In this document: one piece after another, positions 12,278-46,692 of the stretch | How the letters are laid out: each line of letters begins with the position of its first letter | How positions within the stretch are numbered: the first letter of the stretch is position 1 | The notes under the pieces: generated by a model | What the model saw: the letters and a program-made list of their open reading frames with translations, nothing else | Databases searched by the model: none | Told to the model about the DNA's origin: nothing | Source: Stegostoma tigrinum | Lineage: Eukaryota | DNA: 64,000 nucleotides | NCBI RefSeq assembly: GCF_030684315.1 | Contig: NC_081365.1 | Location: forward strand, 29,886,062-29,950,061 | Direction of reading: 5' to 3' | Made by a program: the position numbers and the translations under genes

Positions 12278-12409
12278 GAATGGGAACTGATGCTGGTGAA
12301 TCCGAGATAACAAAGTGTAGAGCTGGATGAACACAGCAGGCCAAGCAAGGCCTGAAACATCAGCTTCTGTGCTCCTAAGATGCTGCTTGGCCTGCTGTGT
12401 TCATCCAGA
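12278..12409. mobile_element. PLE-terminus fold-back element (internally deleted)
   Basis: ctggatgaacacagcaggccaagca ... tgcttggcctgctgtgttcatccag inverted arms; flanked by agaaaggga direct repeat. Confidence 0.7.
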
Positions 12410-12489
12410 AAGGGAACTAGATTAACCTAATTTGAGTTAATGCTAGAAAGGACGAGGAGATTGCCAGGGAACAACTGATAACAGTGGAG

Positions 12490-12735
12490 GAGAACCTACT
12501 TTTCCCAAAGAGTTGTGAAATCTGTGGAATTCACTACCCCAAAGTGCGATGGACGCTGGGAAAGTGAGTAAATTTAAGAAGTAGTTAGGTTCTTAATTGG
12601 TAATGGATTGAAGGGTTAAGGGGAGAAGGCAGAAAAATGGGGGTGAGGAGCATATAAGCCATAAATCGAATGGCAGAGCAGATTTCAATGAGCCAAGTGG
12701 CCTAATTCTGCCCCTATACATCTTATGAACTTATG
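12490..12735 (+). mobile_element. CR1-like LINE 3' fragment
   Basis: agagttgtgaaatctgtggaattcactaccc (LWNSLP) followed by a typical CR1 3' UTR. Confidence 0.65.
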
Positions 12736-13412
12736 AATGTTGTGACTGGTAATGATAAAACAGAATCCACAAGTGGAAGGGTTAAATGATTAGAGAAAAC
12801 AGTACATGCAACTGCCTGAGGTGCAACAGATTAGAGATTAATTATTTCTGTATGATAGAAAGGTAGAAGTGAAAGCAAGACCCAGTGTGAGAGGTAAAGT
12901 TTGCAACCAAGTGAGTGAGGCCATACAAGGTAAATAAGATGAGTGATACATGTACTCACTTGGATGTGAAAAGGAGAAGGTTGCTGGAAACACTCATCTC
13001 AACTGAAGCATTTTACTAGTTAATTTTCCATTTTGTTTTGCAGAACTAACCCTGAACAACTGGTCACAGTCGTTAAATTTACAGGAAAACATTATAAAAA
13101 TAGGAAGACCTGCAGATGCTGCAAACCAAGAGCAAAGACAGAATTTGCTGGAGAAGCTCAGTTCTGAGAAAGGATCACTGGGAAAGGGAAATATTAACTG
13201 TGATTTTTCATCGTAGATGTTGCTGAGCTTCACCAGCAACTTCTGGTTTTGTTACAGAGAACACTGTTTGGCATCCAATTCTTTTAAGATTAGTTTTCTT
13301 AGCAGAAGGAACAAAGAGCACCCAACGAACAAACACCCACGTTACAGATGAGACCAAGCTATACCACAAGCAATACAGAGTACATCATTCAACAGGGCAC
13401 TGAAATAGAAAG

Positions 13413-13564
13413 AGGTCAGAAATCACACAACGTCAAGTTATAGTCTAACTGGCTTATTTGAAAACACAAGCATTCAGAGCCTCTCTCCTTCTTCAGGCTC
13501 CGAAAGGCTGTGTTTTCAAATAAACCTGTTGGACCATGACCTGGTGTTGTGTGATTTCTGACCT
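13413..13564. mobile_element. Fold-back element of a second PLE-terminus family
   Basis: aggtcagaaatcacacaac...ttatttgaaaacaca / tgtgttttcaaataa...gttgtgtgatttctgacct inverted arms; centre on the minus strand is CTGAAGAAGGAG..GCTCTGAAT, a degenerate hammerhead. Confidence 0.7.
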
Positions 13565-16500
13565 TGGCAACCCCATTTCAACAATGGCACCTCCACATCA
13601 TAATAGGAGAAGAACAGACACCCCGGAAAATTGATGAATAACAGACTCTTTGGAGAGACTGGGTCATTCAACAAATATCTGAATTTAACAAGAGTAGGTT
13701 TTAGGTTATCAAGAAATTGACCTAAGCTAATCAACAATGATGAGATCATGCACAATAAAAGGTACTAGCTCACGGTACATGTTGTTCTAAGCATTTCCAA
13801 TATCAGTTTGCCTAATGGTATTTGGGTTGGACTCAAGCACTTTATACAGCTTTGGTCAAAGAAGTGATAACACTGGCCACTTATTTTAATGTAGAGGCTG
13901 GCTCCCAGTCCAAGAAAAAGATTGACTGAAACTATGATGCTGCTTGGCCTGTGTTCATCCAGCTCTACACATTGTTATCTCTGACTGAAAATTAGTCTGG
14001 TCAATGATATCACTTCAGCATTCAACACAAGGACCCCAACAGTAAATTCAATTGATTTGGCTTCAGTAGACTAAAAGGCTCGAATTCAAAACTTAAGGGT
14101 CTCAACTGAAGGAAGTCTTGAAAAAAAGGGACAAAAAAGATCCAGGACAGACAGACGGGTACAGATCAACACCTGATATGGGTAATTCAGAGTTTGAACA
14201 CAGTACTAGAAACTGATGCCTAACGTATTAATATATTGATCAAGGTGCAGGAAAATCTTTCAAATGAAGAAGTGATCAGGAATGATGTCTTCAGTACCCA
14301 CTGATCCTGGACCCACAGAAGGAAAGATCCGAGACAAATTCATATGGGTGAGGTACCTCTGAACTGGCTGCCAACACAGTGTTAAACATGCATACATGAA
14401 GGGCAATGTATTATGGATGACATGTTGACCAGCCATACTCTGGCATTCCCAGTTCTACCAGAAACAACAGGCATTAAGATGTTTTAAGGTAGACAATATT
14501 GGGTTCATTAGAAAAGATTATTATGTGAGGCATCACAACATCCCACCACATGGGTTAGAAACAGGGATAGATAAAATTACTAGTTTAGATGAAGTGTAGA
14601 AACATTTTCAGTCGAAAATGCTTATCTGATAACACCTAATAGAAGAGGCAAGATACTAAATAGAAAAAAGGAAAAAGTGTAGGAACTTCTTATGAGAACC
14701 AAGATACCACATGTAAGCAGGATAGATTGAAGAAGAGGATTGCACTGACTGAGGGGGGACAGAAGGAGAAATTGGCACACAGCATTGTACATAAGAAATG
14801 TATTAGTTCTGTAATTACAAACACACAGGACAGCAAAACATCCAAAATTCTCTTTGCCTTGAAGTAACTAATTCACAACACTAGATAGTATTGACAAGTC
14901 TTAAAATCTATAAGTTATTTTAACATTTTCTTTTGCAGGATGTGAGCAGCAAAGATGTTGAATTTATGAGTATGAAGTGAATCAGATCTTTATTAAAATC
15001 GGTTTGAAATATTCAATTATATGGAAAGCAAAGATTAGGATAAAGCATTACATCTGCTTTATGACTTGAAAGTTCTTTCAGGTGCAAGGTATGATCACTT
15101 GCATTTATAAAACACTTTTAACACTGTAAAATGTTCCAAGGTGTTTCACAGAAATAAAAATCAGCCAAAAGCCATCAAGGAGCTGTTACGTAAGTAAAGA
15201 TTGATCAAACAGGTAAGTTTTAAAGTTCATCTGAAAGAAGAAAGAGAAGGAGGAACAAGGAATCTGAGAAAAGGAACTCCAGGTTTAGCTGGCTATAGGC
15301 ACCAAAATGGTGGGGAATGTATGAGGCTGTAGTTAGAGGATGTCAATGTTTGAAGAGATGTCATGCTGGAGATGGTTACAGTGGTAGGGAAGGGAGAGGC
15401 AGGTTTTAGCCAATATATTCTAGACAGGTTTAATTTTGTGAGATGAAGCATTAAAGGAGTAAAATCATTTTATTTGATTCAGATAAAGATGAAGATGTGC
15501 TCAAAACCTTCTAGGAAACATTTTAATCTTTGTTTTGAAATGTAGACATCCATGCCAATCTACACACAAAATCTGGTTCGACAAACAATTGGTTAAACAG
15601 TTTTCAGAGTGTTTCAACACTAAAAATGGGGGAGGAGGTTTCAAAGTAGTGAATTTTATCTTAAGATCATGACATTTGATATGTAACAATGTCTCAATTA
15701 TTATGAAGTTTTAAATCTGCTTATCTACCCATATTTTGGAAGAGGTTCTGAACCTTCAACTTCAATTCCTCAGGTTACAGAATGCCACTGATTTAACGTG
15801 ACAATACGTTACACACTTGAAACATCTATTAAAAGAATTCTCAGTACTCAAGATCTGCTGGCCAAGAAACGGCTCAGATCATTTGCAATTTTATGCAAGA
15901 ATATCAAACCAGTTCAAGTGCAGCTATAGGCTTTTGGATGAATGAAAAGTTTCAAGCACAATGCCTGAACAATGGGAATCTTTTCATCAAGACATTTTGT
16001 GCCAATGTTAGACATGTTCCCAGGCCACATACTACTCATTAGAGGGACAGTAAAGCTAACTGAGCCCTAACTTTACAGAAACAATCCTTAGTTTTCTATT
16101 TGACAAAATTGCCACCTTGTGGCCTGGAAGTGAAATTGCTAATTTGTTTTTACTCATTCATTGGATGTGGGCATCACTTTTTGTTCGTCTCCAACAATCA
16201 AGCCAGACAGGGCAAGGATGAAAGTTTCCTTTCCTAAAGGAGTGGGAGCGAGGACTGGTGGTGGCTTAACCCAAGGGTCACCACAAGGCCGGGGGGGGTG
16301 GGGGGGGTGGAGAAGAGCTTAAGAAGGTGGGACCTTCATAGATTGTGATGCAAAGTGATCCCAACAACATGGGTTCAATTCCCACACCAGAAAAACAAAT
16401 CACCTACTTGGACATGGTCTTCCTTTGAATAAAATCTGTTCATTTGCTAAATAAATCGCTTCAGCTATGTGTTATAACCTTAATAACGTAAGAAGGAGCA

Positions 16501-17740
16501 GATCATACTGCCTCTTGAACCTGCTCCACTATTCAGTATGATTCCAGTTGCTCAGCAGCCTTAACGCTACTTTCCCATTGCTCCCCAAATCCCAAATTCC
16601 CAGGGACAGCTAAAAAGAACAGGGCATAAAGTAGCTGAAGTGGGAGGAAAGTAAGAAAAGACTACTTTGTATTGCATACACGTCATTTCCAATATCCTGA
16701 GCTACAAGGATACATAAAACAGAATTGTTCACATTATATGGATTTAAATGGCTTAACATTTATTGTCAAGGCTTCAATGTCTTGAGAAAGACTCATATGA
16801 AAGACTGATAAACAAGGCTGACATTTTCCAGCCATTACTGTAAGACTTCAGATTTAAGAGCAGAATTAGACCATTCCATCCATCAAATCTGGTCCACCAT
16901 TCTATCACTGATTCATTTAGACTCAGATTCATATAGCACAGAAAAGGTACTTTGACATAACTACCACTAGAGATGCACTAATCCTAATTTCCTGTACTTG
17001 CCCCATATTCTTGTGTTATTTGAAGTACTCATCCAAATATTTTTAAATGTTCTAAGGTTTCCAACCTCCATTACCCTCCCTGGCAGTGCAGGCTGATATA
17101 TTTCTCAACTCCATCCTCCTGCTTTCTCCCCTTAACCAGGTCCAAGGAATCATATGGATGGAACAAAACCAATGTATTGAAATTACCATTTCATCCCAAA
17201 AGCAATAAAATCAGAAATTATAGTCAATATCAAAACCTCAGATCTTCCATTTAATTTACATTGATCCATATATTAGGAGAAGAAAGGTTACCTGCTCAGC
17301 TTCAAAATGGTATTGAAGCTAGTACACATGAACTATAATTGACTAGCTTACTTGGCAGAGCACAGAAAGGAAAAATAAATTCACATACATGGGACTGGAA
17401 AGGTTTGCCCTCTCCCCTCCTCATCTCTCAAAAGGAGAAAATGGTGAAAAAGTAGCTGAAAGATACTACAATTATCTGAGAATTCTAGAATTTACAAATT
17501 TCATGGCAGTTTGTTCAAACAGGACTACAGTTAAACAACTGTGGACACAGGTCTCACTTTCACAAGTCATGGTCTCAAACTTGAAACTGGATCTGCTTTT
17601 ATCTTACTGATTGGAACCAATATTCTTTTCAAACTTATTACTTGCAGTTGTCTGGAAGTTTAATGTTGCTTGCTTTCTTCCCTCTGGGTTAGAAGGTAAT
17701 AACATTTCTCCTTCACTCAAGGAAACCTTAGAATTGGCTC

Positions 17741-17943
17741 AGAGATAATGGGAACTGCAGATGCTGGAGAATTCCAAGATAATAAAATGTGAGGCTGGAT
17801 GAACACAGCAGGCCAAGCAGCATCTCAGGAGCACAAAAGCCGACGTTTCGGGCCTAGACCCTTCACAGGCCCGAAACGTCAGCTTTTGTGCTCCTGAGAT
17901 GCTGCTTGGCCTGCTGTGTTCATCCAGCCTCACATTTTATTAT
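17741..17943. mobile_element. PLE-terminus fold-back element with 14-bp TSD
   Basis: Near-perfect ~80-bp inverted arms; direct repeat CTTAGAATTGGCTC at 17727-17740 and 17944-17957. Confidence 0.85.
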
Positions 17944-18189
17944 CTTAGAATTGGCTCCTTCATTTCGATTGAGCTAACTGTGTCCTAACTGAACTATGAT
18001 AGCTGTGTGATAAAAATAAATTTGAAAAATTGTTGCAATTGGCTGAGAGTGTGTTAACAAGAGTGCCCTCCTCAATCTGGTAGTAATTACCAAAGTGATA
18101 AAAGATGTTATCAAAGATGCTATTCAGCTATGTTTATTCATCAATAAATGGTTAACTAGTCCTCAACTCAAGTTCGGTCAGGATGACTG

Positions 18190-19075
18190 TTCCTGACTTA
18201 ATTTCAGCTTTATTTCAAACATGAACAGAAAGCTAAATTCCAAAAGTTCCAGGTTAAAGTGAATGTCTTTGCTATTAAGATGTTTATGTGCAACAAGATC
18301 TGGGCAATATCCAGAATTGGGCTGACAAGGGGCGAGTAACATTCATGCCACACAAATGCCAGCCTATGACCATCACCAATACCCCTTGACATTCAATAGA
18401 GTTACCATCACTTAATCCCTCACTATCAACATCCTGGGGGTTACCATTGACCAGAAACTCAACTGGACTCACCACATTAACACAGTAGCTACAAAAGCAG
18501 GCCAGAAGCTGGGAATACTAACTCACTAACCCACCTGCTGATTCCTCAAAGCTTGTCCACCATCTACAAGGCACAAGTCAGGAGTGTGATGGAATACTCC
18601 CCACATGCCTGGGTGAGTGCAGCTCCAACACTCAAGAAGCTTGACACCATCCAGGACAAAGCAGCCCGCTTGATTGGCACTACATCCACAAACATCCACC
18701 ACTGACGCTCAGTAGCAGCAGAGTGTACTACCTACAAGATGCCCTGCAGAAATTCACCAAAGATCTTCAGACAGCACCCTCCATACCCGGTGACCACTTC
18801 CACCCAGAAGGACAAGGGCGGCAGATATATGGGAACACCACCGCCTCCAAGTTCCCTTCTAAGTCATTCACCATCCTGACTTGGAAATGCATCGCCGTTC
18901 CTTCACTGTCACTGGGTCAAAATCCTGGAATTCCCTCCCAGTGAGCATTGTGGTCAACCCACAGCTGGAGGACTGTAGCGGTTCAAGAAGGCAGCTCACC
19001 ACCACCTCCTCAAGGGCAACTAGGGATGGGCAAGAAATATTGGCCAGCCAGCGACACCCACATCCCACAAAATGA
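18190..19075 (+). mobile_element. CR1/L2-like LINE 3' portion
   Basis: ILGVTIDQKLNWT, YKAQVRSVMEYS and SKSWNSLP motifs in shifted frames. Confidence 0.8.
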
Positions 19076-19879
19076 TTAGACAAAAAATAAATAGCATTTG
19101 GTAGGCACGGCACCAAGCAGCCCTTACAAAACTGAACATAAGAACACAAGAAATAGAAACGGGAATAGGTCATTCAGCTCCTCAAGCCTACTGTTCAGAT
19201 GATCTGACATACGACTCAAATCTGTTTTTGTACCAGCTTAGCATAACTATCACCTCCCTGATACTTCCAAAACCTTCAGTGATTTAGCCTCCACAATTCT
19301 AGGGAACAGAATTCCAGACACTGACTACCCTCTGGGACAATTCTGGTTTCATACGTCCACGAATCTCTCACTATTACTGTACTGATTATGTTAAAACCAA
19401 TGTTACAAAGTATCATTACTAGATACAGCAAAATTCATAAATCTTCATGATATATATATCCAAGTCAAGATGGTGAATGGCTTGGAGGGAACTTAAAGGT
19501 TGTAGTGTTTCTATATATACTGCTCTTCTAAATCAAAGTGGTCATGGGTTTGGAGGTGTCGCCCAAGGGCTATGGCAAATTTCTGCAGTGTTTCTTGGAG
19601 ACAGTACACTGCCACTGAGTATCAGTGAAAGAGGGAGTGGACGTTAAACAAATCAAGCAAGTGTCTTTGTTCTGGATGAAGCTCCTTGAGTATTTTTGGA
19701 GCTGCACCTATCCAGGCATGTGGGGAGTATTCAATCACACTCCTGACTTGTGCTTTATAGATGATGGGCGGGCACTGGGGAGTGAGGAGGGGAGTTATTT
19801 GCTGCAGTATTCCTAGCCTCTGAACTGCTCTTGTAGCGACTATAATGTATCTTCACAAAATGATCTGGTGATATTCCAT

Positions 19880-21000
19880 AAAATTGTAAAAGAAATTCAA
19901 GAATTCCAATCAAAATAGGTAAGCTAAGGGCTCATGGAATTGCACGTAACACAGTAGCATGTATAAAGAAGTGGTTAATGAATGGTAAACAGTGTGGGCA
20001 TAAATTATGCACATTCAAGTTGGCAGGTTGTATATAACAGGTTGGCATATGCATCATGGGACCCCAACAATTTATGATGTACATTAATGACTCAGATAAC
20101 AAGAGGAGTCAGAAACTAATTTTACTAATGATACAAACCTAGATGAAAAGGTCACAACCTGCATGAGAGATATAGACTGGTGAAGTGAGTGGTAAACAAG
20201 AGCAAAGATGGCATGTAATGTAGGAAAATTGTGAAGTTACTTGATTCAGTGTTAAGAACAAGCAGAATATTTTTACAAAATGTGAAATTTCTAAATATTC
20301 GTGTTCAAACAGCAAGGAATATAAAAAGTTAGTATGCAGGTACAGCACATAAGTAGGATGACAAACAGCATGTTTGCCTTTATTGCATGGGAACTGAAGT
20401 ACAGGAATAAAGAAGTTGTCCTACAATTGCCCACAGCTTTGGTAACATCAAATTTTAAACACTATGCAGGTTTAGCTTCCATATTTATGAAAGCATATTC
20501 TTGCATTGAAGGACGTACAGTGAAAGTTCAATGAACTAATCCCTGGGATAATACAGATAAATGGACTATTTATCCGATGGTGAGAGGCTGCATATACAAG
20601 GCTGAGTATATATTCTGAACTTTAGAAGAATGACAGATCAGCGCATTGAAACACAGAAAATATTGAAGGGGCTTTATAGAGTAGATGCAGAGAGATCATG
20701 TTCCAATCACGAAATCTAGAATACAGAGCTTAGTCTCCAGTTAGAGGCTGATTATTTAGGACCAAAATGAGAATAAGTTACTTCAGTCAAAAAGAGTTAT
20801 GAATGTCCATTCAGAGGGTTGAGGATGATACATCTTTGAATATATTTAAGACTGAATAGACAGATTTTTGGTCTGTAAGGGAATCAAAGGATATTTGGAG
20901 CTGGGAGGTAAAGCAAGTCGAAGCCCAAGTCAAGTCAAGATTAGGTTGAATTGTGGAGGAGGCCAAAAAGGCGACGTTGTCTACTCCTACACCTATTTTT
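19880..21000 (+). mobile_element. Old CR1-like LINE fragment
   Basis: Decayed motifs K.RAHGI, YIND and ..ELKYRNKEVVLQL..ALV (ORF 20334..20534). Confidence 0.65.
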
Positions 21001-22448
21001 TACGTTGTTGTGAACTCATCCAATGGTCAGAAATTCATTCTGACAGTAGTCAAGAGTACACCCAAAAAAATGGGTGCTATTTATCAAGGTAAACAATACC
21101 TTTCTGAAGCAGAAGACTTGAGGTCCTGTCAGCAACTTCCATTACTATATGTTTAACCAGAGCAGTGCCGCTGACTTTTTTTTTTAAAAATGTCACGGTA
21201 CTTTCATCTCAAGATCAAAAATTTACAGCAGGCATTTTACCCAAGTGCTTTATAAAGCTATCCTACAAGAAATGCTAGAGTATATGTACCACTGAATAGA
21301 AGTTTTTAAAAACAGTTGTACACATATCTTTTACGATTTCAAGGTAAAAGCAGTATGATGTTACAAAAGAATCCAAAGTATTTATTACAACCAATCTCAG
21401 ATCAGACCTACGAATGCTTCCTTTGTGATCATCTGCTGGAAAATCTTCTCCCTCTTGCACACCTGGAATGACTGTACATTTAAGATAACATTTTATCTCC
21501 AGTGACATTGCTCACTGGGTCAAAAGGACACAAGATAGATTACAGCCACATCATCTAGAAGTGGCAGCTTGCAACTACAACATCCAAAAGGATCTGTCTG
21601 GAATTCCCTTAATAACTGATTATACAAATATTTTTAATGTGAATGCAAAAAAAGTGGCCAAAAATCTTAACTGTGAAAATTGTGAAAGAAGATTGAGTAG
21701 GTGATGATTATTCTAATATTATTATTTACAGATTAACTGTATCACCAGTCATATGAACTTTGATACCAATGCATTGAGTAAGAAGAAATCCTATCCTCAA
21801 CTTAAATCTCCAAAACCATACAGAATTTGTGGTGTAATACGGGCAAAAACAGCATTGTAAAACAGTTCAGCTAAAAAAAAAGCAAACATTGAGTAAAAAT
21901 TCTCAACATGGAGAATTTGTCAAATTGAGAAACAGAATAATTCAACTTCAAACCAAAACCAAGCAGAAATCTTCCAACTGGGAGAAAAGCAAACAAAATA
22001 AAATTCTGCTGCAGCTCAGCTGAGTCATCCAGACTGAAAACGTTAACTTGCTGTGTCCCCACAGATGCTGCCTGGCCCGCTACGATTTTCAGCATCATTT
22101 GTTTTTTAAAAATTCCGATGGCCACGCAGCTGGAAAAAAAATTGAGTATCACTGTTTTTATGAAGTTATGAAACTGATGAAGATCAAATCACTTCAAAAA
22201 GGAGTTAATCTCCTTGGCATCATCCTAGGTGATTTCCAGGGGACAATGCACCTTTTCTAAAAGTGCATTGAAGACAAATGTAGAGGATCATAATTCAAAG
22301 CAGAGAAACTTTAAGATTAAACAAAGAATAATCCACAGGAAACTCAACAGTGCACAAGGTGATGTCTTTGCAGACTTCACAAAGAAAGAAACAAAACTGA
22401 TGCATTCATGCATGCAGCAGCTGGTTGAAGCATAGCTCATGAACCCAC

Positions 22449-23816: not shown

Positions 23817-23938
23817 TTCAGCTGAACATCATCTCTTTGAATGTTGTGCTTTGCACCGCATTTCCTCCGTTGACTATAAGCAATCGAGTCTCGGTTTCTT
23901 GTTTTATTGAAAGTATTATAAGAGAACGGCCAGCGCTT
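23817..23938 (-). CDS. SENP7: SENP7 coding exon, phase 0 to 2
   Basis: Acceptor tgtctgttttcag, donor gaa|gtaaga; 122 nt; KRWPFSYNTFNKTRNRDSIAYSQRRKCGAKHNIQRDDVQL. Confidence 0.8.
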
Positions 23939-26181: not shown

Positions 26182-27172
26182 CTAGAAACAGAAGAAAAAC
26201 ATTCAGTGTTTAAGTAAAACTTTCAAAAAGAATTAGAATGCCAAGACTATTCACTAAAGTAGTTCAAACTTCAAATGTAAAAACATCCATTAATTTGGAA
26301 TTTAAGCACAGACATTCCAAATGTCAGTAAAAACTAAATTCTATGCAATTCTGTGCAGTTAAGAAATAAAATCATGTGACAGAACAATCTAGATATGCAC
26401 ATTTAAAGGTGTTTGAATGGGCACCCACACAGGCCAATATTTTACAACATAACAGGCTGGATTCATGAAGCAGTGGAAATCACCAGCAACCTTTATATAA
26501 ATTTGACCTTTTATGGTCAGAGAGATGCTCCCTAAAAGTATTAATTTAGTATATCATTAAAAAACTCAATTACTCTTCATTTGGCAATGTTATTTTTTCA
26601 AAGGTTTTTACAGTGAGATATGAATAGTACAACAATATAGGAGGTTCTCATCAGTTCAATTAATTCTCATCAAATGATACTGAGGGAACCTCAATGATAC
26701 ATCCTCTAGATTATCTTAGGGCTACTGCCAAGCAACTTCTGAATACCTAACTACAGAAAATGCCACTCTGAGATTAACAATAACGATGGCAAATGTTAAA
26801 AACACTGCTGCCATAATCATCATAAAATGTGTATATATTAAAAGCAGTACGTCATTTTATGAAAATTAAATAACCTCAACTATAACAGCCATGAATCAGG
26901 CCAGAGAGGGTCACCTCTGCAATTTTAAATTGTGAATCACACTTTACAAAGTAGTTTACATGAGCGTGTTTACAGCTGTTCACAAAGTAGAAAGTTTCAA
27001 TTTTACCACATAATTGTAAAAATACAGAACTAAGTTGAGAGAAGAAACAATGCAGATAACATTGCCCATCATTCTATTCCAGGGAGCTGAGAATCAAATC
27101 AATATGTAGAAGATTCCAATCAGTTTTCCATCACAACATGACCAAAAGAAAAATCTACAAAAAGATTGTATC

Positions 27173-27325
27173 AGTGATAATGGGAACTGCAGATGCTGGA
27201 GAATCCAAGATAACAAAGCGTGGGGCTGGATGAACACAGCAGGCCAAGCAGCATCTCAGGAGCGCAAGAGCTTTTGTGCTCCTGAGATGCTGCTTGGCCT
27301 GCTGTGTTCATCCAGCCCACACTTT
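27173..27325. mobile_element. PLE-terminus fold-back element, ribozyme centre deleted
   Basis: Inverted arms gggctggatgaacacagcaggccaagcagcatctcaggagc / gctcctgagatgctgcttggcctgctgtgttcatccagccc; direct repeat ATCTACAAAAAGAT at 27153-27166 and 27326-27339. Confidence 0.85.
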
Positions 27326-28859
27326 ATCTACAAAAAGATGGCTGGTGGTGGCAGCAGCAATGGGGTGATCATAGTGGTTGCAGACCAACTACAATTTAAG
27401 CATTTCTAACTAGCTTTACAGAAGTGATGTCATTTATTTTGTTGGAGTGTGGGAGATACTAACAATGCAGATTTATTGCCTATCCAGTTGTCTCTACAGT
27501 TAGCTACGCAGCTGTGTTTTTACAACAATTGAAAAGCTTTCATGATCCTTATTTCTACCGACGTTAGCTCCCAACAATCAAATGCAATTTCTGTGCTTCG
27601 ATGACAAGATTTGAACTGGAGTTCAGAGTTACTAGACTTACGGCAAGATTAATAGGATACTGAGGTAACACAGTGTGAAGCTGGATGAACACAGCAAGTC
27701 AAGCAGCATCAAAACAGCAGGAAAGTTGATGTTTCGGGTCAAGACTGTGGGGAGAGGTTACTGCTTGCTTTCTTAATATATTGTCTATAATCCTAAGAAA
27801 AACTACTTGATGTGAGTTAACACAACTCAGAACAAATGCAAAATAATATGAAACATGGGGTAATATGGTCAGAGCTAATGGATGACAAAGTAAAAAGAAA
27901 CGACTAAGCAAAAATTCATTTTTAATCTCCTGGCTCTTTACAGAATGGAAAAATAAAGTGCTTATGGAGGAATCCTAAACAAAAATCACAAACAGTTAAA
28001 ATTCAACTGTTGTTAAAAAGAACTGCCTACTTTAAAAATAAAATATACTTTGGGAATTGAGAGAAGCAAAAAGAAACATCAACTTGAATTCCTCAGTTCC
28101 TTAACATAAACACAACAACAAACCACTTGCATATATACAGCAACTCTAACTTGGGTGAAGTACCACAAGCTACCTCACAGGAGAAAATTAACAAAGTGTG
28201 ACACCAAGCCACAAGATAAATTAACACACAGCCTAAAACTTGATCAAATGCATGGGTTTTAACCAAAAGCTCAAAGGGAGGCGGAGACAGTGAGGCAGGG
28301 ATGCCAAGGGAGGAAATTTCTAAGTCTAGGGCAGTGCTTCACAAACCCTTCCCCACTGAGAACCACTTCAAGGCTTGAAAATTATTGCAACCCCTTGGTG
28401 AGAGGTGGAGTATAGGATATTTGAGAACGAAGAGGAGAGTCAACCATTGCCACCTCGATACTCACAACTTTACCTGTGGTCCCAAACCCAATTTTAGGGA
28501 GCCTGGCTTAGAGTCTAGGCAGATGACAACTATCAGAGTAGAGGAATTCATAACAGGATGTGCAAGAGACCAGATGTTTTGGACTGCAGAGAGCAATGAA
28601 GGTTGTAGAGATGGAGCCTCAATTTGCAAAGTATCAGAATGTCCCATGAAAACTCTAACATAACAAAGAATATTCAAGAAAAGCAATGAAGGAGGAGCCT
28701 GCAAAGCAAGTTGACAATGACAGTCTAATCGTAGACTATGTATAAAGTATTGTGTTGACTGAACTGCAAAAAAATGTTGCCAAAGGCACCTTTTGTTACA
28801 AGACAATGCAATGTTCAGGACAGGACAGGAGCCCCACAAAGAAATTAAAACTGCAGTCA

Positions 28860-29560
28860 GTGTTGAAAAAAAAAGTTAATATTCTCTCATTTATTTCCAA
28901 ATGAATTCCTAAGTGATTTCTCCAAAGTGAAGGGGACTAATGCTCAAGAAAATAGGATGCAAGAGATGATATCAGGTTCAAACTGTTGGAGAGTAATCAC
29001 CAACAACTGGTCAGGTCGGCACAACAGCGAGGGCCGAAGGGCCTGTACTGTGCTGTGTTCTATGTTCTATATGTAACGTGTCATGTCTACATTTAATTTG
29101 GAAATGGCCAGAATGCTGATTAAATCAGAGCAATTAACCAAGCCTCACATTCTAATTCTCTAGAATTTAGAAGGTAAGGGTGACCTGATCAAAAACTTCA
29201 AAATTTTAACAGGAGAAGATGGAGCAAATAAAGATAAAACTATTTCTACGGGTTGGGGATTCTACAACTAGGGGACAAAGTGTGAAAGTTAAGGCCAAAC
29301 CATTCAAGTGAGCAGTTAGGAAGTACTTCTACACACAAGAGGGCCTTAGGGGTTTAGAACTCGCTTCCACAAATGGCAGTAGATGCAGGATCATTATTCA
29401 TTTTAAATTTGAGATTGATTTTTTTTTCTTAAGCAAAGGTATTAGGCGGTATGAGCCAAAAAGTGAGTACATATGAAGTTTGAACAGCAATCAGCCACGA
29501 CTTCATGAAGGGTAGAACAGACTTGAGCGGCTGAATGGCCGACTGCTGCTTCTATGTGCA
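28860..29560 (+). mobile_element. CR1-like LINE 3' fragments, with a short (TTCTATG) tail insert at ~29010-29070
   Basis: SLEFRR.RGDLIK.FKIL-type motif at ~29158-29210; gggccgaagggcctgtactgtgctgtgttctatgttctat tail. Confidence 0.65.
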
Positions 29561-30375
29561 CATATTCACAATATTGAAAAAAATACAGAAAGAGTAGCCT
29601 ATTCAATATCCATAGTCCCGTGGGAATACAATCTTTCCATGGCTGCACAAGCTTGTTATAGGTATCTAGGGAATCTATTAATCGTCAGGGTCCCAAATCC
29701 CCTCTTCTTTGAAAATGTTTAACATGTTTCTTTCCAACTGCAGGACATGATTGTGAGCAATCTCCAAACTGTAACCAATAAAATGTTTTTGTTTTGAAGA
29801 ACAAAATAGTTTCTAAAAACGGTATCCCAAGACAAGTGACAGAATGCAACAGCAAGACAGCATTAGATAACACACCAAAAAGATGAATAGCATGTCTGCA
29901 TGATTTATTAAAAAAGTTTAGTTAAAAAAACATCTAAATATATTGGACATGCTGAAAACCGAAAACAGCCTGTCCATGAAAACTGATCTCGAAGAAACAC
30001 TAGAAGACATGTTTCTTCTAAATGGAGAACTGTATTGACATTGTTACTGATTACCTCAATTCACATCCATAAGCTGAAGCACCAAATCTGTGAAAGAAGG
30101 AAGACCTGTACCTCATTTCAATTCTTTGCTAAATCAAGGAAGTAAAGCAGCTGCCTCACAGCCCCAATTCGGGCTTGACCAGTGTCAGACAGTCACTCAT
30201 AATCATACAGCACAGAAACAGACCGTTCAGTCTAACTGGCCAACCATAATTCCAAACTAAATGAGTCCCACCTGCCCGCACTTAGCCCATATTTCTCTGA
30301 AAATTTCTTATTTGCATACTTATGCAAATGTCTTTTAAACATAAAACTGTACCTGCGTCACAAATGGCAGCTTAT

Positions 30376-30720
30376 GATCCTATAGATATGGACACTGGTG
30401 GAATAGAAAGTGAGAACTTGGTGATCCTATCGGTGTTGTGGAAGGGGAAGATAAGGGGTGAGGGCAAAAAGGGCCAAGGATTCTATCAACCACAGTGGCT
30501 GGCAAGTTTCGGTTGAGGAAAAAAAATTGAAGCGCACATTCCGGGGGCCAACTTGAAGATAATGGGATCATCAGAACAGATGTGATGAAGACAGAGAAAC
30601 TGGAAGAACGGCCTGGAGTCCTTACAAGAAGCAGATGAGAGTTTATAGTCAAGGTAACTATGGGATTCTATGAGCTTGTAACAGATGTTGGTGGCTTGTC
30701 TAACTCCAGAAATGGAATCA
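30376..30720 (-). mobile_element. Penelope-like RT C-terminal fragment
   Basis: ORF 30486..30725 ATNICYKLIESHSYLDY..SASCKDSRPFFQFLCLHHICSDD is homologous to the PLE at 45400-45540. Confidence 0.7.
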
Positions 30721-31049
30721 TTCATGTCAACAATTTTAGTTTAATGCTTTCAAAGGTTTTTTTTATTAAAAATAATTGAACAAACAAAATATTCAGTGGT
30801 TCAAAAAAATACTGATTGCAGACTACCAAATGTAAATTTACAGTATACAACAATACAAGTAGATGTCAAAGTGTCATTCAGATACAGGTTGCTGAAAATA
30901 ACCATTAAAAAAAACTTGTTTCTTCAACTTTTAACTGGAGATTTTTCATGTAAAGCCATTAAAAAGAGTCCTTTCTTTCTCTGTTTCTTTCTCAATCCAG
31001 TCTCTTATCCCTCACTTCTTTCTCTCAGCACCAATATGACAATGAATTA

Positions 31050-31248
31050 GTGATAATGGGAACTGCAGATGCTGGAGAATCCAAGATAATAAAATGTGAG
31101 GCTGGATGAACACAGCAGGCCCAGCAGCATCCCGGGAGCACAAAAGCTGACGTTTCGGGCCTAGACCCTTCTTCAGAACGTCAGCTTTTGTGCTCCTGGG
31201 ATGCTGTTGGGCCTGCTGTGTTCATCCAGCGTCACATTTTATTATCTC
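31050..31248. mobile_element. PLE-terminus fold-back element with 13-bp TSD and intact hammerhead core
   Basis: ~80-bp inverted arms; direct repeat TGACAATGAATTA at 31037-31049 and 31249-31261. Confidence 0.85.
31149..31176 (-). ncRNA. Minimal hammerhead ribozyme core
   Basis: Minus strand CTGAAGA-a-GGGTC-ta-GGCCC-GAAAC-GTC. Confidence 0.75.
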
Positions 31249-31839
31249 TGACAATGAATTAACCCTCTCTAATTCACACTTCCTTCTTAGTCCTTGCACT
31301 GTTAGTTTCACACCTCTTTAATCCGATTGGCTAAGCCAATATCAGAATTGCATAGTCTGTTCATTCAGGTCACAAAGGCCCTGATTCTATCACTTTGTCA
31401 TCAATTCACACTTAAAGCAAATGGGCAACACAAAAGTAATCAATCAATCTGTACCGGCAAGGGTAAGCTTAACTCAGGAACTGGTGCCCTACTCCATCAA
31501 ATTAGGGACTAGTCATAACAATAAGGGTATTATTTGAGGGTGGTAATCAGAAATGGAGACAACTAAAGAAACAGGGTAAAGTTTCTATAGACTAGTACAG
31601 ACAATTCATTCAAAACTGAAATTGCAACAGATCCTCTCATGGGACAGCTACAAAAAGCCAATTTTGTTTTTAATAAAGATTTTAAAAATGAAGTTTGCTT
31701 CAGAACTTGAGAAGAGAACTGTTCTGAAAAGACACCATTTTTCAACTGCTGGGTACAGATGCGATGGTCCCACTTCTAGCAGCACAATCAATCAGGGAGC
31801 TGATAATGCAATGACATAAGAGACACAACCAAACAAGTA

Positions 31840-34779: not shown

Positions 34780-35215
34780 AATACTCAGTGGAGTATTTCT
34801 CATTTTGGCGTAGTTCCGGGTTACCACAGTGTGTTGTCGCTTGTTTAAATAGTGTTTACAAGCAACTTTGTTTGTGGGTGTTGGGGTGGTTACTGTCGCA
34901 ATTAGGTACATGGCCAGTATGTGTGGCTTTACTGTGTACCTTTGTCAGGAATTCTGCATTAGCCCTGCCTTCTACCATAATGACCAGGAATGGGGGCTGT
35001 TTGTTCTTGTCCTCTTCCATGGCGAATTTGATGCCGGTGAGAGTATTGTTTATTAGTTGATGCGCCTCCTCTGGTTTGGTCCATTTCATGACAAAAAAAG
35101 TGTTGTCCACTTATCTGATCCACAGTTTGGGTTGGATTCACAGAAGGGCCATGCTTTGGAGTCTCTGCATCACTGCTTCTGCTATTAGTCCAGAGGTTGG
35201 TGACCCCCTGAGTGT
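34780..35215 (-). mobile_element. Penelope-like RT fragment
   Basis: DNTF..IKFAMEEDKNKQPPFL..TKVHSKATHTG..SNHPNTHKQSC is the PLE RT thumb pattern. Confidence 0.8.
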
Positions 35216-35566: not shown

Positions 35567-35651
35567 TGGGTCTAGGCCCAAAACATCAGCATTCCTGCTC
35601 CTCTGATGCTGCTTGGCCTGCTGTATTCATCCAGCTCTACACCTTGTTATC
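35567..35651 (+). mobile_element. Single-arm PLE terminus
   Basis: gggtctaggcccaaaacatcagc...gatgctgcttggcctgctgtattcatccagctctacaccttgttatc; ccatat repeated on both sides. Confidence 0.7.
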
Positions 35652-40600: not shown

Positions 40601-42460
40601 GCATAGCTCATGTCTAGCTTCATGAAAGACAACACCCCTGCCGGCTCTGCATATAAATCACATGTGATGGATTGTATATCTATCTAACTGTGGAAAGAAG
40701 ATTACTGTTTGTTTAAAATCCCGAAAAAGGCGAAGCAACCAATCAGGCTTCACAAAAATCTGTACAACTGCTGCTGGCCATTCCACAAACTGGACTGGTT
40801 CGGATAATTCCTCTGCTTTCTGGCATGACTTCTCCTCTACTTCTGCAAATGACACTGGGCAGGGCCTGGCAGAATTGTTTCCTGGTCAACACGCAAGGTG
40901 GCCTTGACTCTTTTGAGAGCCCCTAGACCTTCCTGAAAAACTTCCAGTACTTAGTTAGAAAAAGACTGCCTGAGTGAAGTTCTAAATAGAAAAAGTGTTG
41001 AGCCGATCAAGGTGCATCCTTCTCAACCAACCACACCCCATCAGGTTTGGGCCAGAGCCTTTTTAATATAATCAGTAGTATCTAAACCAGTTGCTTCTCA
41101 TGCAAGATCAGAACCAAAGTCATACTTTTAACGTGTAAGGGTACCCCAATATAGATTCTGGCTGAGGTCTTATGCAAACTTAAGGGTTGGTGGCCAGAGC
41201 AAATTTTGTTTAAGATTGATTCAGCAATTGCTGATAAAGCTGCACTGACATTGGCCTCCATTAGAACTGGGTACCCATTTAGGTAGACATTTATTGGGAT
41301 TGGTTCTGATTTGGATGCTGGTGAGCAATTTAACTGTTTCAAGCCACAGGAGGTGGGCTTTCCAGGGTGTGCAGTCTCCTGGATACCAACCTATGAGTTC
41401 TCTAATTCAATTCAGGCTTAGTGGGTCTCTTTTGCCATCATAAGTCCACATACCAGTAACAATCACAATGCTTACTAGCCTGGATTCTAAAGAAAATGCT
41501 AACCACTTGGCAGAGGCTTGGCTTTATTTTGGGTTTTTGCTGTGGGCTGACCTTGTACTCCCTCTGTTCAGGATATGACCTGAATAAGGTTATGCAATTA
41601 TCCTCACTCAAGTGCTGTCCCACCAAGCTCAGTCAGCCTAGCAAAGGTGTCCGCTTCCATTGGCAGACCCTGCAACTCATATGCTCCACTTGCCACATTT
41701 CCAATGATAAAGACAGTGTTGTTCATGTCTGAAGTCCAATTGGGCTTCAACTAGTAAGCGTTTTTGCTCAGTTACATCAGTAATTCCACATGCCAAGTGA
41801 GCAAACAATCTCTCAGCACCTTATTAAAAGTTAAACTAAAGTGACAGGCCTCTGCCAGTCAGCTTAACGTAGTCAAAATTCCAACATGGATTCTCCTGGT
41901 TCTCGAACTATCAAGTAAAGCTGATAGTGTCTCAGAATTAGAGAAGACTTAGGATTATAAATTCTAAGATTGTAAATGTCACATCTTGAAAAGGTTTTAG
42001 TATCCAGTGAATGTCAGACTCCTAATAAACGAAAAGCTGCGGATCCACAAGCTATCAGGAGAATTACTCATTGCTTTTCATCTGCCCCAATGTCACTTGT
42101 CCTGAAAATGTAATGCACTCTGTCCACATACTAGGCCCAATCTTTAACATCAGGATCAAACGAGTCAAGCTTCTCAAAGAATGGCGTGATGCCTGAAATG
42201 CTTACCCCAAGATGACTGTTGCATGCAAATTTTTTTAAAAGTTTTTTCTTCCTCTCATAGCCACTGAAATTACTCGACAGAGGCTGGTATCCCATCTCCA
42301 AGTCGCCCTTTATTTACATGTGCATAGTACTGTATCTGACACTGGTCTGGCTTCCTCAATATCAGGTCTCAGAGTGAGCACAGCCTCTGACACTGTTTAT
42401 ATCTGTCAGCCAGGGCTCTTTGAGTGGACCAGGTTACCAGCCCCAGTCATGAAACTCATT
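37617..42460 (-). mobile_element. Decayed Gypsy/Ty3 LTR retrotransposon (K02A2.6/Mag-like)
   Basis: Homologous LTRs at 37617-37852 (TG..CA) and 42265-~42460; PBS-like TGGCTATGAG next to the 5' LTR; purine tract at ~38071-38084; gag start (PFFEKLDSFDP..DW), protease, RT (PVQFVEWPAAVV..KPD..RLFRDFK) and integrase (WEWPGKPWMWLHVDYAGPF) remnants in Gypsy order. Confidence 0.9.
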
Positions 42461-43089
42461 TTTTTTGTAATGAGGTGAGCCAGGTGGACTTCATTCACTA
42501 CAAAGAAGAACTCGTCCTCCTTAACTAAGTGTGCAAAAAAAATCTGAGTTTCAGTCCAAATCAAACAAAATCAAGATTGTAAACCGTCTACTAAACCTAA
42601 AAATAAAATAAATGAATTGCCAAATCAGAGAAATTTAAACATAAAGTAGTTGTGGGATAAGTGTACAATATGAACATTAAGCTTAAGTAACTCAACACCA
42701 CTACCTTACGCAGAGGATGGCGAATAGAAGCCATAAATTGCTGCATGCAAAAATTATAAAAGCACTTATTCAAGAACTACAACGCGATCTCTTTCACAAT
42801 ACTGGATATGGATGGAAAGTAGAGAACGTTCCATAGGCAATGTCAAGTGGATGCCACCATGATTTGGAAAAATGTCTTCAATGAGCAAATTAAATTTTTA
42901 AAAAATGATTAATCTGTTCATTTATCTCTCCCCATAGATGCTGCGAGATCGGCAAAGTTATTCCAGTAATGTTTTAAATACCTTTATGGATGACTGTTGT
43001 TTTACTGCAGTATTAAAGCAATTGCAGTGTCTGAAAAAAAATCATCCTTCGTGCCCATGATTTCCAAAAACTCTCCTAACCTCACCAAG

Positions 43090-43240
43090 AGACAGTAGGA
43101 ACTACCGATGCTAGAGAATCTGAGATAACAAGCATCACAGGAGCAGGAAACCATTTCTGAAGAAGGGTCCAAGACCCAAAACGTCAGCTTTCCTGCTCCT
43201 CTGATGCTGTCTAGCCTGCTGTGTTCATCCAGCTTCACAT
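43090..43240. mobile_element. PLE-terminus element with mutated hammerhead
   Basis: CTGAAGAAGGGTCCAAGACCC-AAAAC-GTC (GAAA changed to AAAA), preceded by a partial inverted arm. Confidence 0.7.
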
Positions 43241-44149
43241 GGTTTGATCAGTTGTCAGTGTGGCCTTGAAAATATACTGAAGACTGTGGGATTAAACTGA
43301 AGCCTCCTGTTTCTTTGAAGTCTCTCAAAGGATACCCACCAAACCTTGTCAGCAGTCCCAGGGATACCTCATAGAGAACATGTTGGGAAATTAACTACTG
43401 AAGGCCACCTCGTTAGCACTAACCTTTCACCCAGTTACTCTACAATTTCTGTTATGTATTTACATTTCAGATTTCCAGCACTTAACAGTATTTTATTTTT
43501 ATAATAGCATGTTTGGTGTGTTTTATTTTTCTGGTCATCTTTCCTGTGAACTCAGTTTGTTTTTACCACAACCTAAATATTAAAACACTTTTTTTCCACG
43601 TGCCTTTATCAACCCAAGTTCAGTTTCACGTTGATCAGGAGAAACTACTGTGGAAAACATCTTGACTCAATGAGCAATACGATATAGAGGGACTACAACA
43701 AGTGAATTTTTAGGTCAAAAATCGGTGCGAGATGCTAGTCATTCAACTGTCGTTTCCAGACAGATTTGTTTACACTGCGCCGAAACTAAATAAAAATCAC
43801 ATCAAAAGGCATTTGCAAATTTCCTGACTCAAAAAAGAATTCGCATTTCTCCCCACCACCAAGACGATGCTGGTCTACGAGCAAGTGAATGAAAATCGGA
43901 GGTTCAAGTGTTACTAAAGTGTAAGTGTAGATTGTATTTGACAGATTTGTAGAAACTGATGTTATTTCTCGCCCCACTCCCAAACATAAAAGACTTGTAT
44001 CCGCACAAGAAGGAAACAAAAACAAAACAAAGTACAGCTGTCAGTCAACTGACGACAACAACACCCAGACCGAACTGCAAACGTCCGAAATTAATGGTCA
44101 ACAACAAAACACCCACCTGAGGGGCGAGCTGCTGGGGTCTGCACCGGGA

Positions 44150-44650
44150 AATTGTGACGCAAAAAAAAGCCACAGGAAGAAAATGAAAGCACAAGCAGAC
44201 CCCGGGACAATGACGGGGCCCCGGGCTCACTGCTTTCCGCCCGTCATCCGGCACGAAACTCGGTAACGGTCAGAGCCCACATCCACGGGCCGAGACTGTG
44301 ACTGCAGGCCCTGGGACGGGACCGACCCGACTACAACCGGCCCCGGCCCACAGCCAGTGCCAGGCCTAGGCCCTGCGGCCGCCTTTCCAAGCCTACCTCA
44401 CTGGAAATGAAGAAATACCAACAATCTCTCTCTCCTCCTTTCCGCCTTCTCTCTCTCTAAGGAAGGAATCTTCATCACACCGGAAGGGGAGGAGCAAAAA
44501 AAAATTAACCTCCACAAAAAGAGGGTTAAGTCACTCCAAGTTGGCCGACAACATGTTGGAAAAAAAATTTCTCTCTACCTTTACAATGATAGGGAAAGCA
44601 CCATGGCGTCACGACATGCCTGTGGCTCTACTGAAGTCACCCGTTTTGAA
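44150..44650. promoter_or_regulatory. CpG island / SENP7 promoter
   Basis: GC- and CpG-rich against an AT-rich background; ETS-type CCGGAAG at 44480-44486; ATGGCG and CGTCA at 44603-44611. Confidence 0.75.
44397..44480 (-). other. SENP7: Probable non-coding exon 1 of SENP7
   Basis: Minus-strand tandem donors cca|gtgagg and gag|gtaggc at 44402/44397 inside the CpG island; transcription start not determinable. Confidence 0.55.
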
Positions 44651-44906
44651 TAACATAACGCAGTTTTGGTTATTACGTAGTTAAAAATTACATTTATCCG
44701 TTGTGCTTCTCTTTGGTGTTTGTAACACAAGAGTAGCGTCTGTATTCCACGAACGTTTATGTGGTTAGCACTTAGCTAAACCACCTGTAATCTTCTGTTA
44801 GAATTCTCTTGATAAAAATCAAAAGCTAGACAGGAGATCGCCTAAAAGGACTCGACCCCTAGATTCGGTTGGCAGCAGGTGGTGAGGGAGCAAACGACGG
44901 AAAACC

Positions 44907-46692
44907 ATAAATAACAAGGTGCTCCTAAGATGCTGCTTGGCCTGCTGTCTTCATCCAGCTCCATACTTTGTTACCTCTATAAAAAGGTGTAGAGCTGGAT
45001 GAACTGAGCAGGAAGGGTCTAGGCCCAAAACGTTAGCCTCCACTGACACCCCCATCCACTTATCTGAACTCATCCTCACCCTCAACAACTTCTCCTTTAA
45101 TTCCTCCCACTTCCTACAGACAAAGGGGGTGGCAGTGGGTACCCGCATGGGCCCAAGCTATGCCTGCCGCTTTGTAGGGTACATGAAACAATCCCTCCTC
45201 CAAAGTGACAGTGGCCCTATCCCCCACCTCTTCCTCCATTACATTGATGACTGTTTCGGCGCTGCCTTGTGTTCCCACGAGGAGCTCGAACAGTTCATCC
45301 ACTTCACCTACACCTTCCACCCCAACTTCAGTTTACCTGGACCATCTCTGACGCCTCTCTCTCCTTCCTGGACCCCTCTGTCTCCATCTCTGGCATCCAC
45401 CTGGAAACCAATATCCATTTTAAGCTTACCGACTCCCACATCTACCTAGAATATTCCTCCTCTCACCCACCTTCCTGTAAAAAGGCTATCCCCATTCCCA
45501 AGTACTTCGCCTCCGCCGCATCTGCTCCCAAGATGAGGCATTCTACTCCCGAACATACCAGATTTGCTCTTCTTTCAAAAACTGCAACTTCACCTCCACA
45601 GTGATCGAAAATGCCCTGAACCGTGTCTTCAGCATTTCCTGCATCTCATCCCTCACACCCCCTATCCGTAATAATAACCAAAACGGAATACCCCTCGTCC
45701 TCACGTACCACCCCACCAACTTCCAAATCTAATGTCATCCTCCGACATTTCTGCCATCTGCAATCCGACCACACTACCAAAGACATTTCTCCCTCCCCAC
45801 CCTTGTCTGCTTTCCAGAGGGGCCATTCTCTCCATGACTCCCTTGTCCACTCCACACTCCCCTCCAGTCCCACCATGCCCACCACTTTTCCCTGCAACCG
45901 AAGCAAATGCTACACCTGCCCTTATACTTGCCCACTCACCCCAATCCCAGGCCCTAGGAAGACTTTTCACATCAAACAGATGTTCACCTGCTCATCTGTT
46001 AATGTGATATACTGTATCCACTGTTCCCGTTGTGGCCTCCTCTACATCGGGGAAACCAAACGGAGGCTTCGGGACCACTTTGCGGAACACCTACGCTCAG
46101 TTCGCAACAAACAACTACACCTCCCAGTCATGAACCATTTCAATTTCCAACCCCCAACTCCTCAGACGACATGTTCATCCTGGGCCTCCTGCATTGCCAC
46201 AATGACACCAACTGAAAGATGCAAGAACAGCATCTCATATTTCGCTTAGGAACCTTGCAGCCCAAGAGTATCAATGTGGATTTCGCAAGCTTCAAAATCT
46301 CCTCTCCCCCGACCACATGCCAAAACCAGCCCAGCTAGTCCCCGCCTCCCGAACCATTCCTCCCATCTCAAGCCCTACTCCCAACCCGTGCCCACTAACC
46401 TCATCCCGCAACCCCCCCCCCCCCCCCCCCCCGACCTGTCGCCTCCCTAACTCCCCACCTACATTCACCTTCACTGGCTCTAACCCCGCCTCTTTGACCT
46501 GTCTGTCTCCTCTCACCTTATCTTCTCCTTTATCCATCTTCTATCTGCCTCCCCCGTCTCCCTATTTATTTCAGAATCCCCTTACCCTCCCCCATTTCTG
46601 AAGAAGGGTCCTGACCCGAAACGTCAAGCTTCCCTGCTCCTCTGAAGCTGCTCGGCCTGCTGTGTTCATCCAGCTTCATACTGTGTTATCTC
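44907..46692 (+). mobile_element. 5'-truncated Penelope-like element (RT + GIY-YIG + terminus) with rearranged terminal pieces at its 5' end
   Basis: GVAVGTRMGPSYA..FLHYIDDCFG (RT) and NVIYCIHCSRCGLLYIGETKRRLRDHFAEH (GIY-YIG); a few frameshifts and stops; pyrimidine-rich 3' region; ends ..ctgtgttatct. Confidence 0.92.
46598..46625 (+). ncRNA. Minimal hammerhead ribozyme core in the PLE terminus
   Basis: CTGAAGA-a-GGGTC-ct-GACCC-GAAAC-GTC with a perfectly paired stem II. Confidence 0.8.

Follow-up and report, generated by a model that had tools for sequence, protein, structure and literature searches.

What do short inverted copies of a transposon terminus represent, a mobile unit or the residue of separate integrations? 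The question is raised by a 64,000-nucleotide (nt) stretch of Stegostoma tigrinum contig NC_081365.1 (positions 29,886,062 to 29,950,061, here called the window), in which nine short loci resemble the terminus of a Penelope-like element (PLE) lying at 45021-46692. An initial annotation, made from the sequence alone, had grouped these loci into a fold-back, hammerhead-bearing family and had offered two origins for it, a non-autonomous class resembling retrozymes or miniature inverted-repeat transposable elements (MITEs), or an end product of PLE integration. The units analysed here are true insertions of two short PLE terminal-repeat copies, placed head to head between target duplications, and were probably made anew at each site by the PLE enzyme priming both cut target strands on its RNA, with joining of the resulting short complementary DNAs (cDNAs).

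Structure of the copies

All nine named loci aligned to the PLE terminus (46596-46692), which bore out the relationship first proposed. They are named by their starts (12273, originally given as 12278, and 13935, 17741, 27173, 27665, 31050, 35567, 43090 and 44907), and positions ("ref") are counted along the long arm of 31050 from its outer (tail) end. The description as a fold-back family applied to five clean fold-backs, whereas the copies at 13935, 27665 and 35567 are single arms and that at 44907-45037 is a complex insertion of four pieces (Table 1). Within the window, a continuum runs from single arms through fold-backs to the copy bearing an open reading frame (ORF). The inverted arms of 17741, 27173 and 31050 measure 86, 48 and 71 nt and are 96-98% complementary, and the fold of 31049-31249 gave a z score of -19. 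The two arms of a copy differ from each other at 1-10% of sites (1 of 79 in 17741), and the window arms as a whole belong to several subfamilies, up to about 24% apart.

The outer ends are fixed. The sense arm ends at ref 36-37 in seven of nine cases (13935, 17741, 31050, 35567, 43090, 44919 and the PLE end), and the minus-strand single arm 27665 likewise begins at ref 36. The 27173 copy aligned to ref 41 and reaches TTATCT after a small deletion, and 12273 ends at ref 54. The other outer end carries a 35-nt extension, present on one arm only in all five clean fold-backs, on none of the three single arms and not on the PLE end. This one-sided extension is the published PLE "tail", an identity missed in the initial annotation, so the fold-back architecture is already known.

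Both outer ends finish in ATTATCT on the sense strand (ref 1-12 and ref 35-48; 17741-17752 and 17775-17788), a candidate start-site signal. The sense terminal strand alone was no more structured than its shuffles in the six cases folded (z -0.3 to +0.9), and therefore no conserved start-site stem is claimed. All five tail-bearing arms lie on the left side, which has a chance of 1 in 16 and is not significant. A 27-codon frame led by ATG runs through the tail (31049-31130, minus strand); it is open in 31050 and 27173, is broken by one base in 17741, and may represent an ORF start by analogy with the Adineta and Anolis elements, although none of the 120 proteins retrieved matched it.

The inner ends vary. 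Of the five fold-backs, two have a longer tail arm, two a longer tailless arm and one equal arms; the arms meet with overlaps of 0-4 nt (microhomology). In 27173, what overlaps is AGCT, a palindrome made up of the bases immediately 3' of the predicted ribozyme cut (ref 100); helix II occupies ref 110-122. No two of the five fold-backs have the same centre.

The hammerhead-derived centre attributed to these copies proved to be rare in its whole form. A whole CUGANGA...GAAA-C-GUH core was found in one of the nine named copies, on the minus strand of 31050 (31176-31149). This core and that of the PLE (46598-46625, plus strand) have a 4-bp helix II and an ACGU helix III, and are predicted ribozymes. 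The 3' part of the 31050 core is paired inside the hairpin. Only 3' halves of the core are present in 17741, none in 27173, and 43090 has a G-to-A change within GAAA. An Rfam scan of the window (11 matches, E up to 1) returned no hammerhead family. A lone whole core with a 6-bp helix II lies in another repeat family at 1588-1621, of which a second copy was not found in the window.

Target duplications and empty sites

Direct repeats of 14, 14 and 13 bp flank 17741, 27173 and 31050, with a chance probability of 1.5e-4 to 4.5e-4, as calculated from random flank pairs reaching the same length. Repeats of 13-14 bp are present at these three of the nine copies. Those at 12273 and 13935 are of 9 bp (P = 0.005), that at 27665 is of 9 bp with one mismatch, and the 6-bp repeat at 35567 is at chance level (P = 0.18). 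No duplication was found around 43090, around 44907-46692 or around two other repeat families of the window (13092 and 13413).

Empty orthologous sites, the check proposed in the initial annotation, were looked for with contigs from 4 of 19 listed runs placed on 26900-31500 (4.6 kb). Runs X1 and X2 are two samples of organism A, and X7 and X13 come from organism B, which differs from the window at 188 of 2689 aligned bases (7.0% divergence). Organism B lacked all three insertions of the tested stretch, those at 27173 and 27665 in both of its runs and that at 31050 in X7. Contigs of organism B pass from 27166 to 27359 with 13 letters between, and from 27653 to 27755 with none; in X7, contigs pass from 30963 to 31249 with 60 letters, against 285 in the window. 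These skips leave a single copy of the duplication, and the skip at 27665 spans exactly 27654-27754, which exposed its one-mismatch 9-bp duplication. In both organism A samples, single-copy contigs enter the arms from the flanks at both ends of 27173, 27665 and 31050. The family is present elsewhere in organism B at very high depth. Therefore, as organism B carries the family at other places but lacks these insertions, the family predates the split of A and B and was active afterwards.

These data leave little room for an assembly artefact, an explanation that we regard as barely credible. It could draw on the fact that no listed organism A contig bridges a hairpin centre, that long reads were not part of the data and that X1 or X2 may be the source of the assembly itself. 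Against it stand the organism A contigs running from flank to arm at both ends of the three copies, the differences between arms at 1-10% of sites and the single duplications in organism B.

Joints and depth in the contigs

In X1, 173,388 contigs were placed on 26900-31500 and 1335 joints passed; the deepest among the 15 listed had a depth of 1145. Unique DNA had a depth of about 22 in this sample, compared with 1.6e7 at one position inside an arm. The ratios of depth between tail and arm (0.25-0.71) and between arm and unique DNA (4e5-2e6) are inflated by short contigs and are not taken as copy numbers. Loose ends were seen in 1408 contigs at the tailless end and in 1635 contigs past ref 130 (agreement 0.35), the latter beginning like the PLE 3' untranslated region (UTR). 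Since loose ends pile up past ref 130, arms longer than those in the window exist.

Tail-to-tail joints, in which a tailless end is fused to the outer end of another arm (31052-31085 and 31047-31084), were found in 28 and 13 contigs of X1 and in 19 and 9 of X2; none was counted in X7 or X13. The window has such a fusion at 44978/44979. Such tail-to-tail joints may be dimers of the unit or insertions into the element's own end.

Origin of the fold-backs

Insertion, the two outer ends fixed 35 nt apart, the variable inner ends and the continuum of sizes were observed directly. A route that would produce them can be modelled on the biochemistry of the Anolis Poseidon element, in which both target strands are cut and extended and two adjacent internal start sites for reverse transcriptase (RT) define the tail (Frangieh et al. 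2024, PMC11167929; this and the other papers are cited from the available portions of their text). A staggered cut of the target, 9-14 bp apart, would supply two primers. On the element RNA, one primer would start at ref 1, where the tail ends, and the other at ref 36, the end that lacks the tail; each cDNA would run for about 35-135 nt, and the inner ends would then be joined with 0-4 nt of microhomology. Most of the resulting units would be dead on arrival.

More tentatively, the cDNAs may halt mostly in the hammerhead region, where the 5' end of the RNA or the folded ribozyme would lie, in which case the short arms would be run-off copies and not random truncations. Twelve of 15 inner ends fall at ref 92-138, and the arm lengths are tighter than an exponential distribution (15 arms, measured beyond ref 35; mean 71 and standard deviation 19 nt; P = 7e-5 to 4.5e-3). 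Taken together, this clustering and the tight lengths suggest that the cDNAs stop at the ribozyme or where the RNA has its 5' end, and this is the weakest step of the argument. In the Anolis Poseidon study, the RT continues as far as the template's 5' end, mostly uncleaved RNA is used and a dimer is predicted (PMC11167929).

Given that every centre in the window differs and that two other repeat families fold back alike, the fold-backs are likely to be integration products and not one MITE or retrozyme family. Of the two origins first offered, the second, an end product of PLE integration that forms independently at every insertion and has its inner ends close to the ribozyme, agrees with the five different centres, the empty sites and the position of the inner ends.

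Several observations weigh against independent formation by priming of both strands. The interval of ref 92-138 was picked post hoc, arms belonging to the same element are not independent of each other, and the length test left out the 44907 stub, the piece at 45012-45037 and the arm with the ORF. The biochemical data were obtained with a Poseidon element, which belongs to another clade than the PLE of the window. The arms of 31050 share two private variants and those of 27173 share one, all absent from the other window arms, so that either a common template (the source RNA) or later gene conversion is needed. Some centres do recur in the contigs, with joints at about 18-51 single-copy depths. 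Two recurring joints were found in both organism A samples, one recurring joint has an insert of 8-11 nt between the arms, and a complex shared centre of this kind is poorly explained by independent formation. In most recurring joints the inner ends fall at ref 39-93, short of those in the window copies; among these joints are ref 71/80 (with insert), 74/84, 129/93 and 39/76. Moreover, no listed organism A contig spans a hairpin centre, and a dominant centre may be hidden, as the joint tallies for X1 and X2 are incomplete, centres identical to the reference do not register as joints and short contigs mask high-copy junctions.

The shared variants would also be accounted for if one cDNA or antisense template folded at a short palindrome and copied itself, the endonuclease then trimming the tail from one end, as proposed for the Adineta Penelope elements. 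Self-priming was put forward in PMC3846280 and endonuclease resolution of the tail in PMC8557442; the AGCT junction of 27173 and the variants common to both arms of 31050 and of 27173 would suit such a route. It is nevertheless judged unlikely. The tailless arm reaches further in 12273 and 43090 and the tail arm in 17741 and 31050, so that one-way copying would need later deletions; because either arm may be the longer, neither is always a self-copy of the other, barring later deletion. In addition, the tail maps in vitro to two RT start sites (PMC11167929).

The recurring centres would instead be expected if a sizeable share of the fold-backs were non-autonomous mobile units, formed once as a hairpin, transcribed and re-inserted whole by the PLE enzyme. 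The tail-to-tail joints and the joints scored as "goes back 97" (14 and 13 contigs) agree with this, and PLE termini suffice for movement in trans (PMC3846280). Nevertheless, no centre is common to any two of the five window copies, the recurring joints amount to less than 0.01% of the arm depth, eight of the nine copies lack a whole ribozyme core and the core of 31050 has its 3' part paired in the hairpin. Recurrence could also arise by segmental duplication, by carriage in another repeat or at microhomology hot spots. This explanation therefore appears somewhat less likely even than self-priming. A minor fraction of the fold-backs may be re-amplifying. There is a similarly slight chance that some of the stubs constitute a class of non-autonomous hairpin retroposons of sharks, formed once by priming of both strands and then copied whole by the Penelope enzyme without tandem ribozymes, with tens of loci per shared centre and tail-to-tail dimers.

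A DNA transposon of the MITE type that arose from PLE ends and was mobilised by a transposase would share the short, non-coding, high-copy and inverted-repeat build of these units. It is very improbable, since the inverted repeat is not terminal, the 35-nt tail lying outside it on one side, the length of the duplication varies (9, 13 and 14 bp), the five centres differ and single arms with duplications exist (13935 and 27665). The other half of that proposal, a non-LTR (non-long terminal repeat) retrozyme, was rejected because the window holds no head-to-tail tandem with whole hammerheads and only one whole core among nine copies; tandem-like joints do occur elsewhere in the genome, as contig joints. 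The retrozyme- or MITE-like class thus failed its defining tests in the window.

Short interspersed nuclear elements were likewise rejected, as no family derived from transfer RNA (tRNA), 5S or 7SL was present among the 11 Rfam matches of the window. Three microRNA families of Rfam did match the hairpins, all below their gathering scores, and were read as generic stems. Pattern scans of metagenome and viral contigs gave no matches. Matches to the tail pattern at two metagenome loci covered 22-23 nt only, in coding sequence of bacterial appearance, and were judged to be due to chance.

The ORF-bearing element

The element at 45021-46692, which the initial annotation had taken as a coding PLE, does contain an ORF with RT and GIY-YIG motifs, but it is 5'-truncated and frameshifted. 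Its Pfam matches, RVT_1 (E 0.0014) and GIY-YIG (E 0.0056), both lie below the curated cut-off. The ORF is 58-76% identical to protein P0001 across three pieces, and residues 60-180, in one frame, are 77-80% identical to proteins named from whale shark and zebra shark. The linker between RT and endonuclease reads CNRSKCYTC at 45893 and is of the CX2-5CxxC type, a layout given for Neptune and Nematis PLEs (PMC8557442). By its RT-linker-endonuclease layout, this decayed element is probably of the Neptune/Nematis type.

The PLE end and the young arms differ at 14-16 of the 61-79 sites compared (about 19-24%). Therefore, being truncated, frameshifted and this different, the element is a relative of the young arms and not their parent. 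An independent tie between the young arms and an ORF-bearing element is provided by zebra shark protein P0002, whose C-terminus runs through the terminal sequence of these arms (12 of 14 residues against 31176-31135). Further decayed fragments of PLE-like ORFs were detected by tblastn at 30262-30731 (E 1e-9), 6157-6339 (E 0.002) and 34865-35134 (E 1.1), all on the minus strand; that at 30262-30731 lies about 320 bp to the left of the 31050 copy.

Comparison with known systems

The units are real and abundant, are likely to be minimal PLE integration products of published build, and are mostly ordinary as an element class. An inverted pseudo-LTR (pLTR), a 31-bp tail on one inverted pLTR, duplications of 9-10 bp and an empty allelic site were described by Arkhipova et al. 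2013 (PMC3846280), together with solo pLTRs and palindromes at the inverted junction. An inverted 5'-truncated copy with a tail of 30-40 bp was called typical of PLEs by Craig et al. 2021 (PMC8557442), for whom the way in which tandem and inverted PLE structures arise was a step of the cycle still to be solved. Canonical insertions of endonuclease-positive (EN+) PLEs in these two papers share with the window copies the inverted 5'-truncated pLTR set head to head with a direct copy, the one-sided tail of 30-40 bp, the variable target duplication, the palindrome or overlap at the inverted junction and the minimal hammerhead in the terminal repeat. In the window, a cognate RT and GIY-YIG ORF, a minimal type I hammerhead core, an inverted copy, a one-sided tail of 35 nt and a duplication of 9-14 bp, single at the empty site, were all found. 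The published ends differ in that they flank ORF-bearing bodies, whereas the window arms are shorter than 140 nt, lack an ORF and far outnumber the ORF-bearing copies.

The Poseidon element PAc of Anolis carolinensis (PMC11167929) is alike in the two RT start sites bounding its tail and in the cutting and extension of both strands. Reverse transcription of PAc starts 111-118 nt beyond the point where hammerhead stem II begins; the corresponding distances of the two outer ends here are about 120 and 85 nt. PAc is unlike the PLE of the window in clade, as Penelope/Poseidon elements are without the CX2-5CxxC linker, and the available text of that study describes no fold-back products.

Animal non-LTR retrozymes are also non-coding, also derive from PLE terminal repeats and carry a related type I hammerhead, and Li, Clavereau, Pollet 2026 (bioRxiv 10.64898/2026.07.22.740005) define them by a tandem build in which the ribozymes are whole; retrozymes are arranged head to tail with a whole ribozyme per unit, whereas the window units are head to head and eight of nine lack a whole core. 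Minimal hammerheads were reported to be mostly lone, many of the lone ones coming from truncated PLEs, with some paired on opposite strands 100-700 bp apart (Cervera and de la Pena 2014, PMC4209133). In sharks, an expansion of Penelope-like elements in introns is described in a whale shark preprint (10.1101/443036), and the unclassified share in the eLife whale shark repeat table is 10.85%. The available text of PMC6155905, PMC8969392, PMC7561263 and PMC8455134 added nothing specific. A literature search that covered few subscription journals, with no comparison to Repbase or Dfam, found no treatment of ORF-less two-arm fold-back PLE units as a class, nor in sharks.

A further parallel is the twin priming of L1 elements. 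There, both target strands prime reverse transcription and an inverted 5' piece is joined by microhomology; twin priming differs in copying two different parts of the RNA, whereas the window arms copy one terminal segment from two fixed starts.

With about ten such loci per 64 kb, the genome offers a natural experiment on PLE integration, in which the outer and inner ends of a very large number of copies could be tabulated together with the lengths of their duplications. Such a table could separate priming of both strands from self-priming and show whether the cDNAs end where the ribozyme cuts, within it or where the RNA has its 5' end. Shark annotations may wrongly list the repeat as a MITE, a microRNA hairpin or unknown, and dispersed perfect hairpins in introns may be a source of double-stranded RNA.

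Other repeats and genes in the window

Two further repeat families, at 13092 and 13413, have the same build (Table 1), and a PLE origin is inferred for them from this build. A single copy related to the 13413 family is found at about 49599-49720, and 22038-22097 holds a homologous arm that may belong to a fourth fold-back family.

Table 1. Coordinates of the PLE-derived copies, the ORF-bearing PLE and the other fold-back families; inner ends are given in ref positions as tail arm/tailless arm.
Feature	Position	Strand	Structure	Inner ends	Direct repeat
Fold-back 12273	12273..12408	.	Antisense tail arm ref 1-78 (12273-12347) and sense arm ref 114-54 (12348-12408)	78/114	9 bp, at 12269 and 12407
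Single tailless sense arm 13935	13933..13982	+	ref ~86-36		9 bp, exact, at 13923 and 13982
Fold-back 17741	17741..17945	.	Antisense tail arm ref 1-123, 2 spacer bases, sense arm ref 114-36	123/114	14 bp, 17727-17740 / 17944-17957
Fold-back 27173	27167..27329	.	6-nt filler 27167-27172, antisense tail arm ref 1-100, sense arm from ref 100	100/100	14 bp, 27153-27166 / 27326-27339
Single tailless arm 27665, diverged subfamily	27663..27754	-	ref 36-118 and 9 nt resembling PLE 3' UTR		9 bp, one mismatch, 27654-27662 / 27755-27763
Fold-back 31050	31049..31248	.	Antisense tail arm ref 1-130, sense arm ref 106-36	130/106	13 bp, 31037-31049 / 31249-31261
Single tailless sense arm 35567	35568..35651	+	ref 120-37		6 bp, chance level
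Older fold-back 43090	43088..43249	.	Antisense tail arm with internal gap (ref 1-44, then ~79-97), sense arm ref ~136-37, mutated core	~97/136	
Complex 5' end of ORF-bearing copy, 44907	44907..45037	.	Four pieces: antisense stub, sense ref 93-36, antisense ref 38-71, sense ref 123-98		
PLE ORF, 5'-truncated and frameshifted	45021..46329	+	RT core, CX2-5CxxC linker at 45893, GIY-YIG motif with internal CxxC at 46004		
PLE 3' pseudo-LTR end	46590..46692	+	Whole minimal hammerhead core 46598-46625; tailless end at ref 36		
Second repeat family, same build	13092..13251	.	One-sided extension; inverted arms 13133-13161 / 13223-13251; decayed hammerhead-like centre		
Third repeat family, same build	13413..13600	.	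Inverted arms 13413-13482 / 13495-13564; hammerhead-like centre; extension on right arm		

A short repeat of very high depth, ending in TTCTATG runs, is located at 29012-29070, with copies at 2539, 58101 and 59440. The segment 57633-58031, which had no Pfam hit, is presumably the end of an ORF from a CR1-type long interspersed nuclear element. Two single long open frames were detected on the plus strand. That at 60877-62223 encodes a predicted tRNA m1G methyltransferase (Pfam E 4.8e-34), and that at 49854-50942 a predicted Arb2-domain protein (Pfam E 1.5e-54), which may be a retrocopy or a single-exon paralogue.

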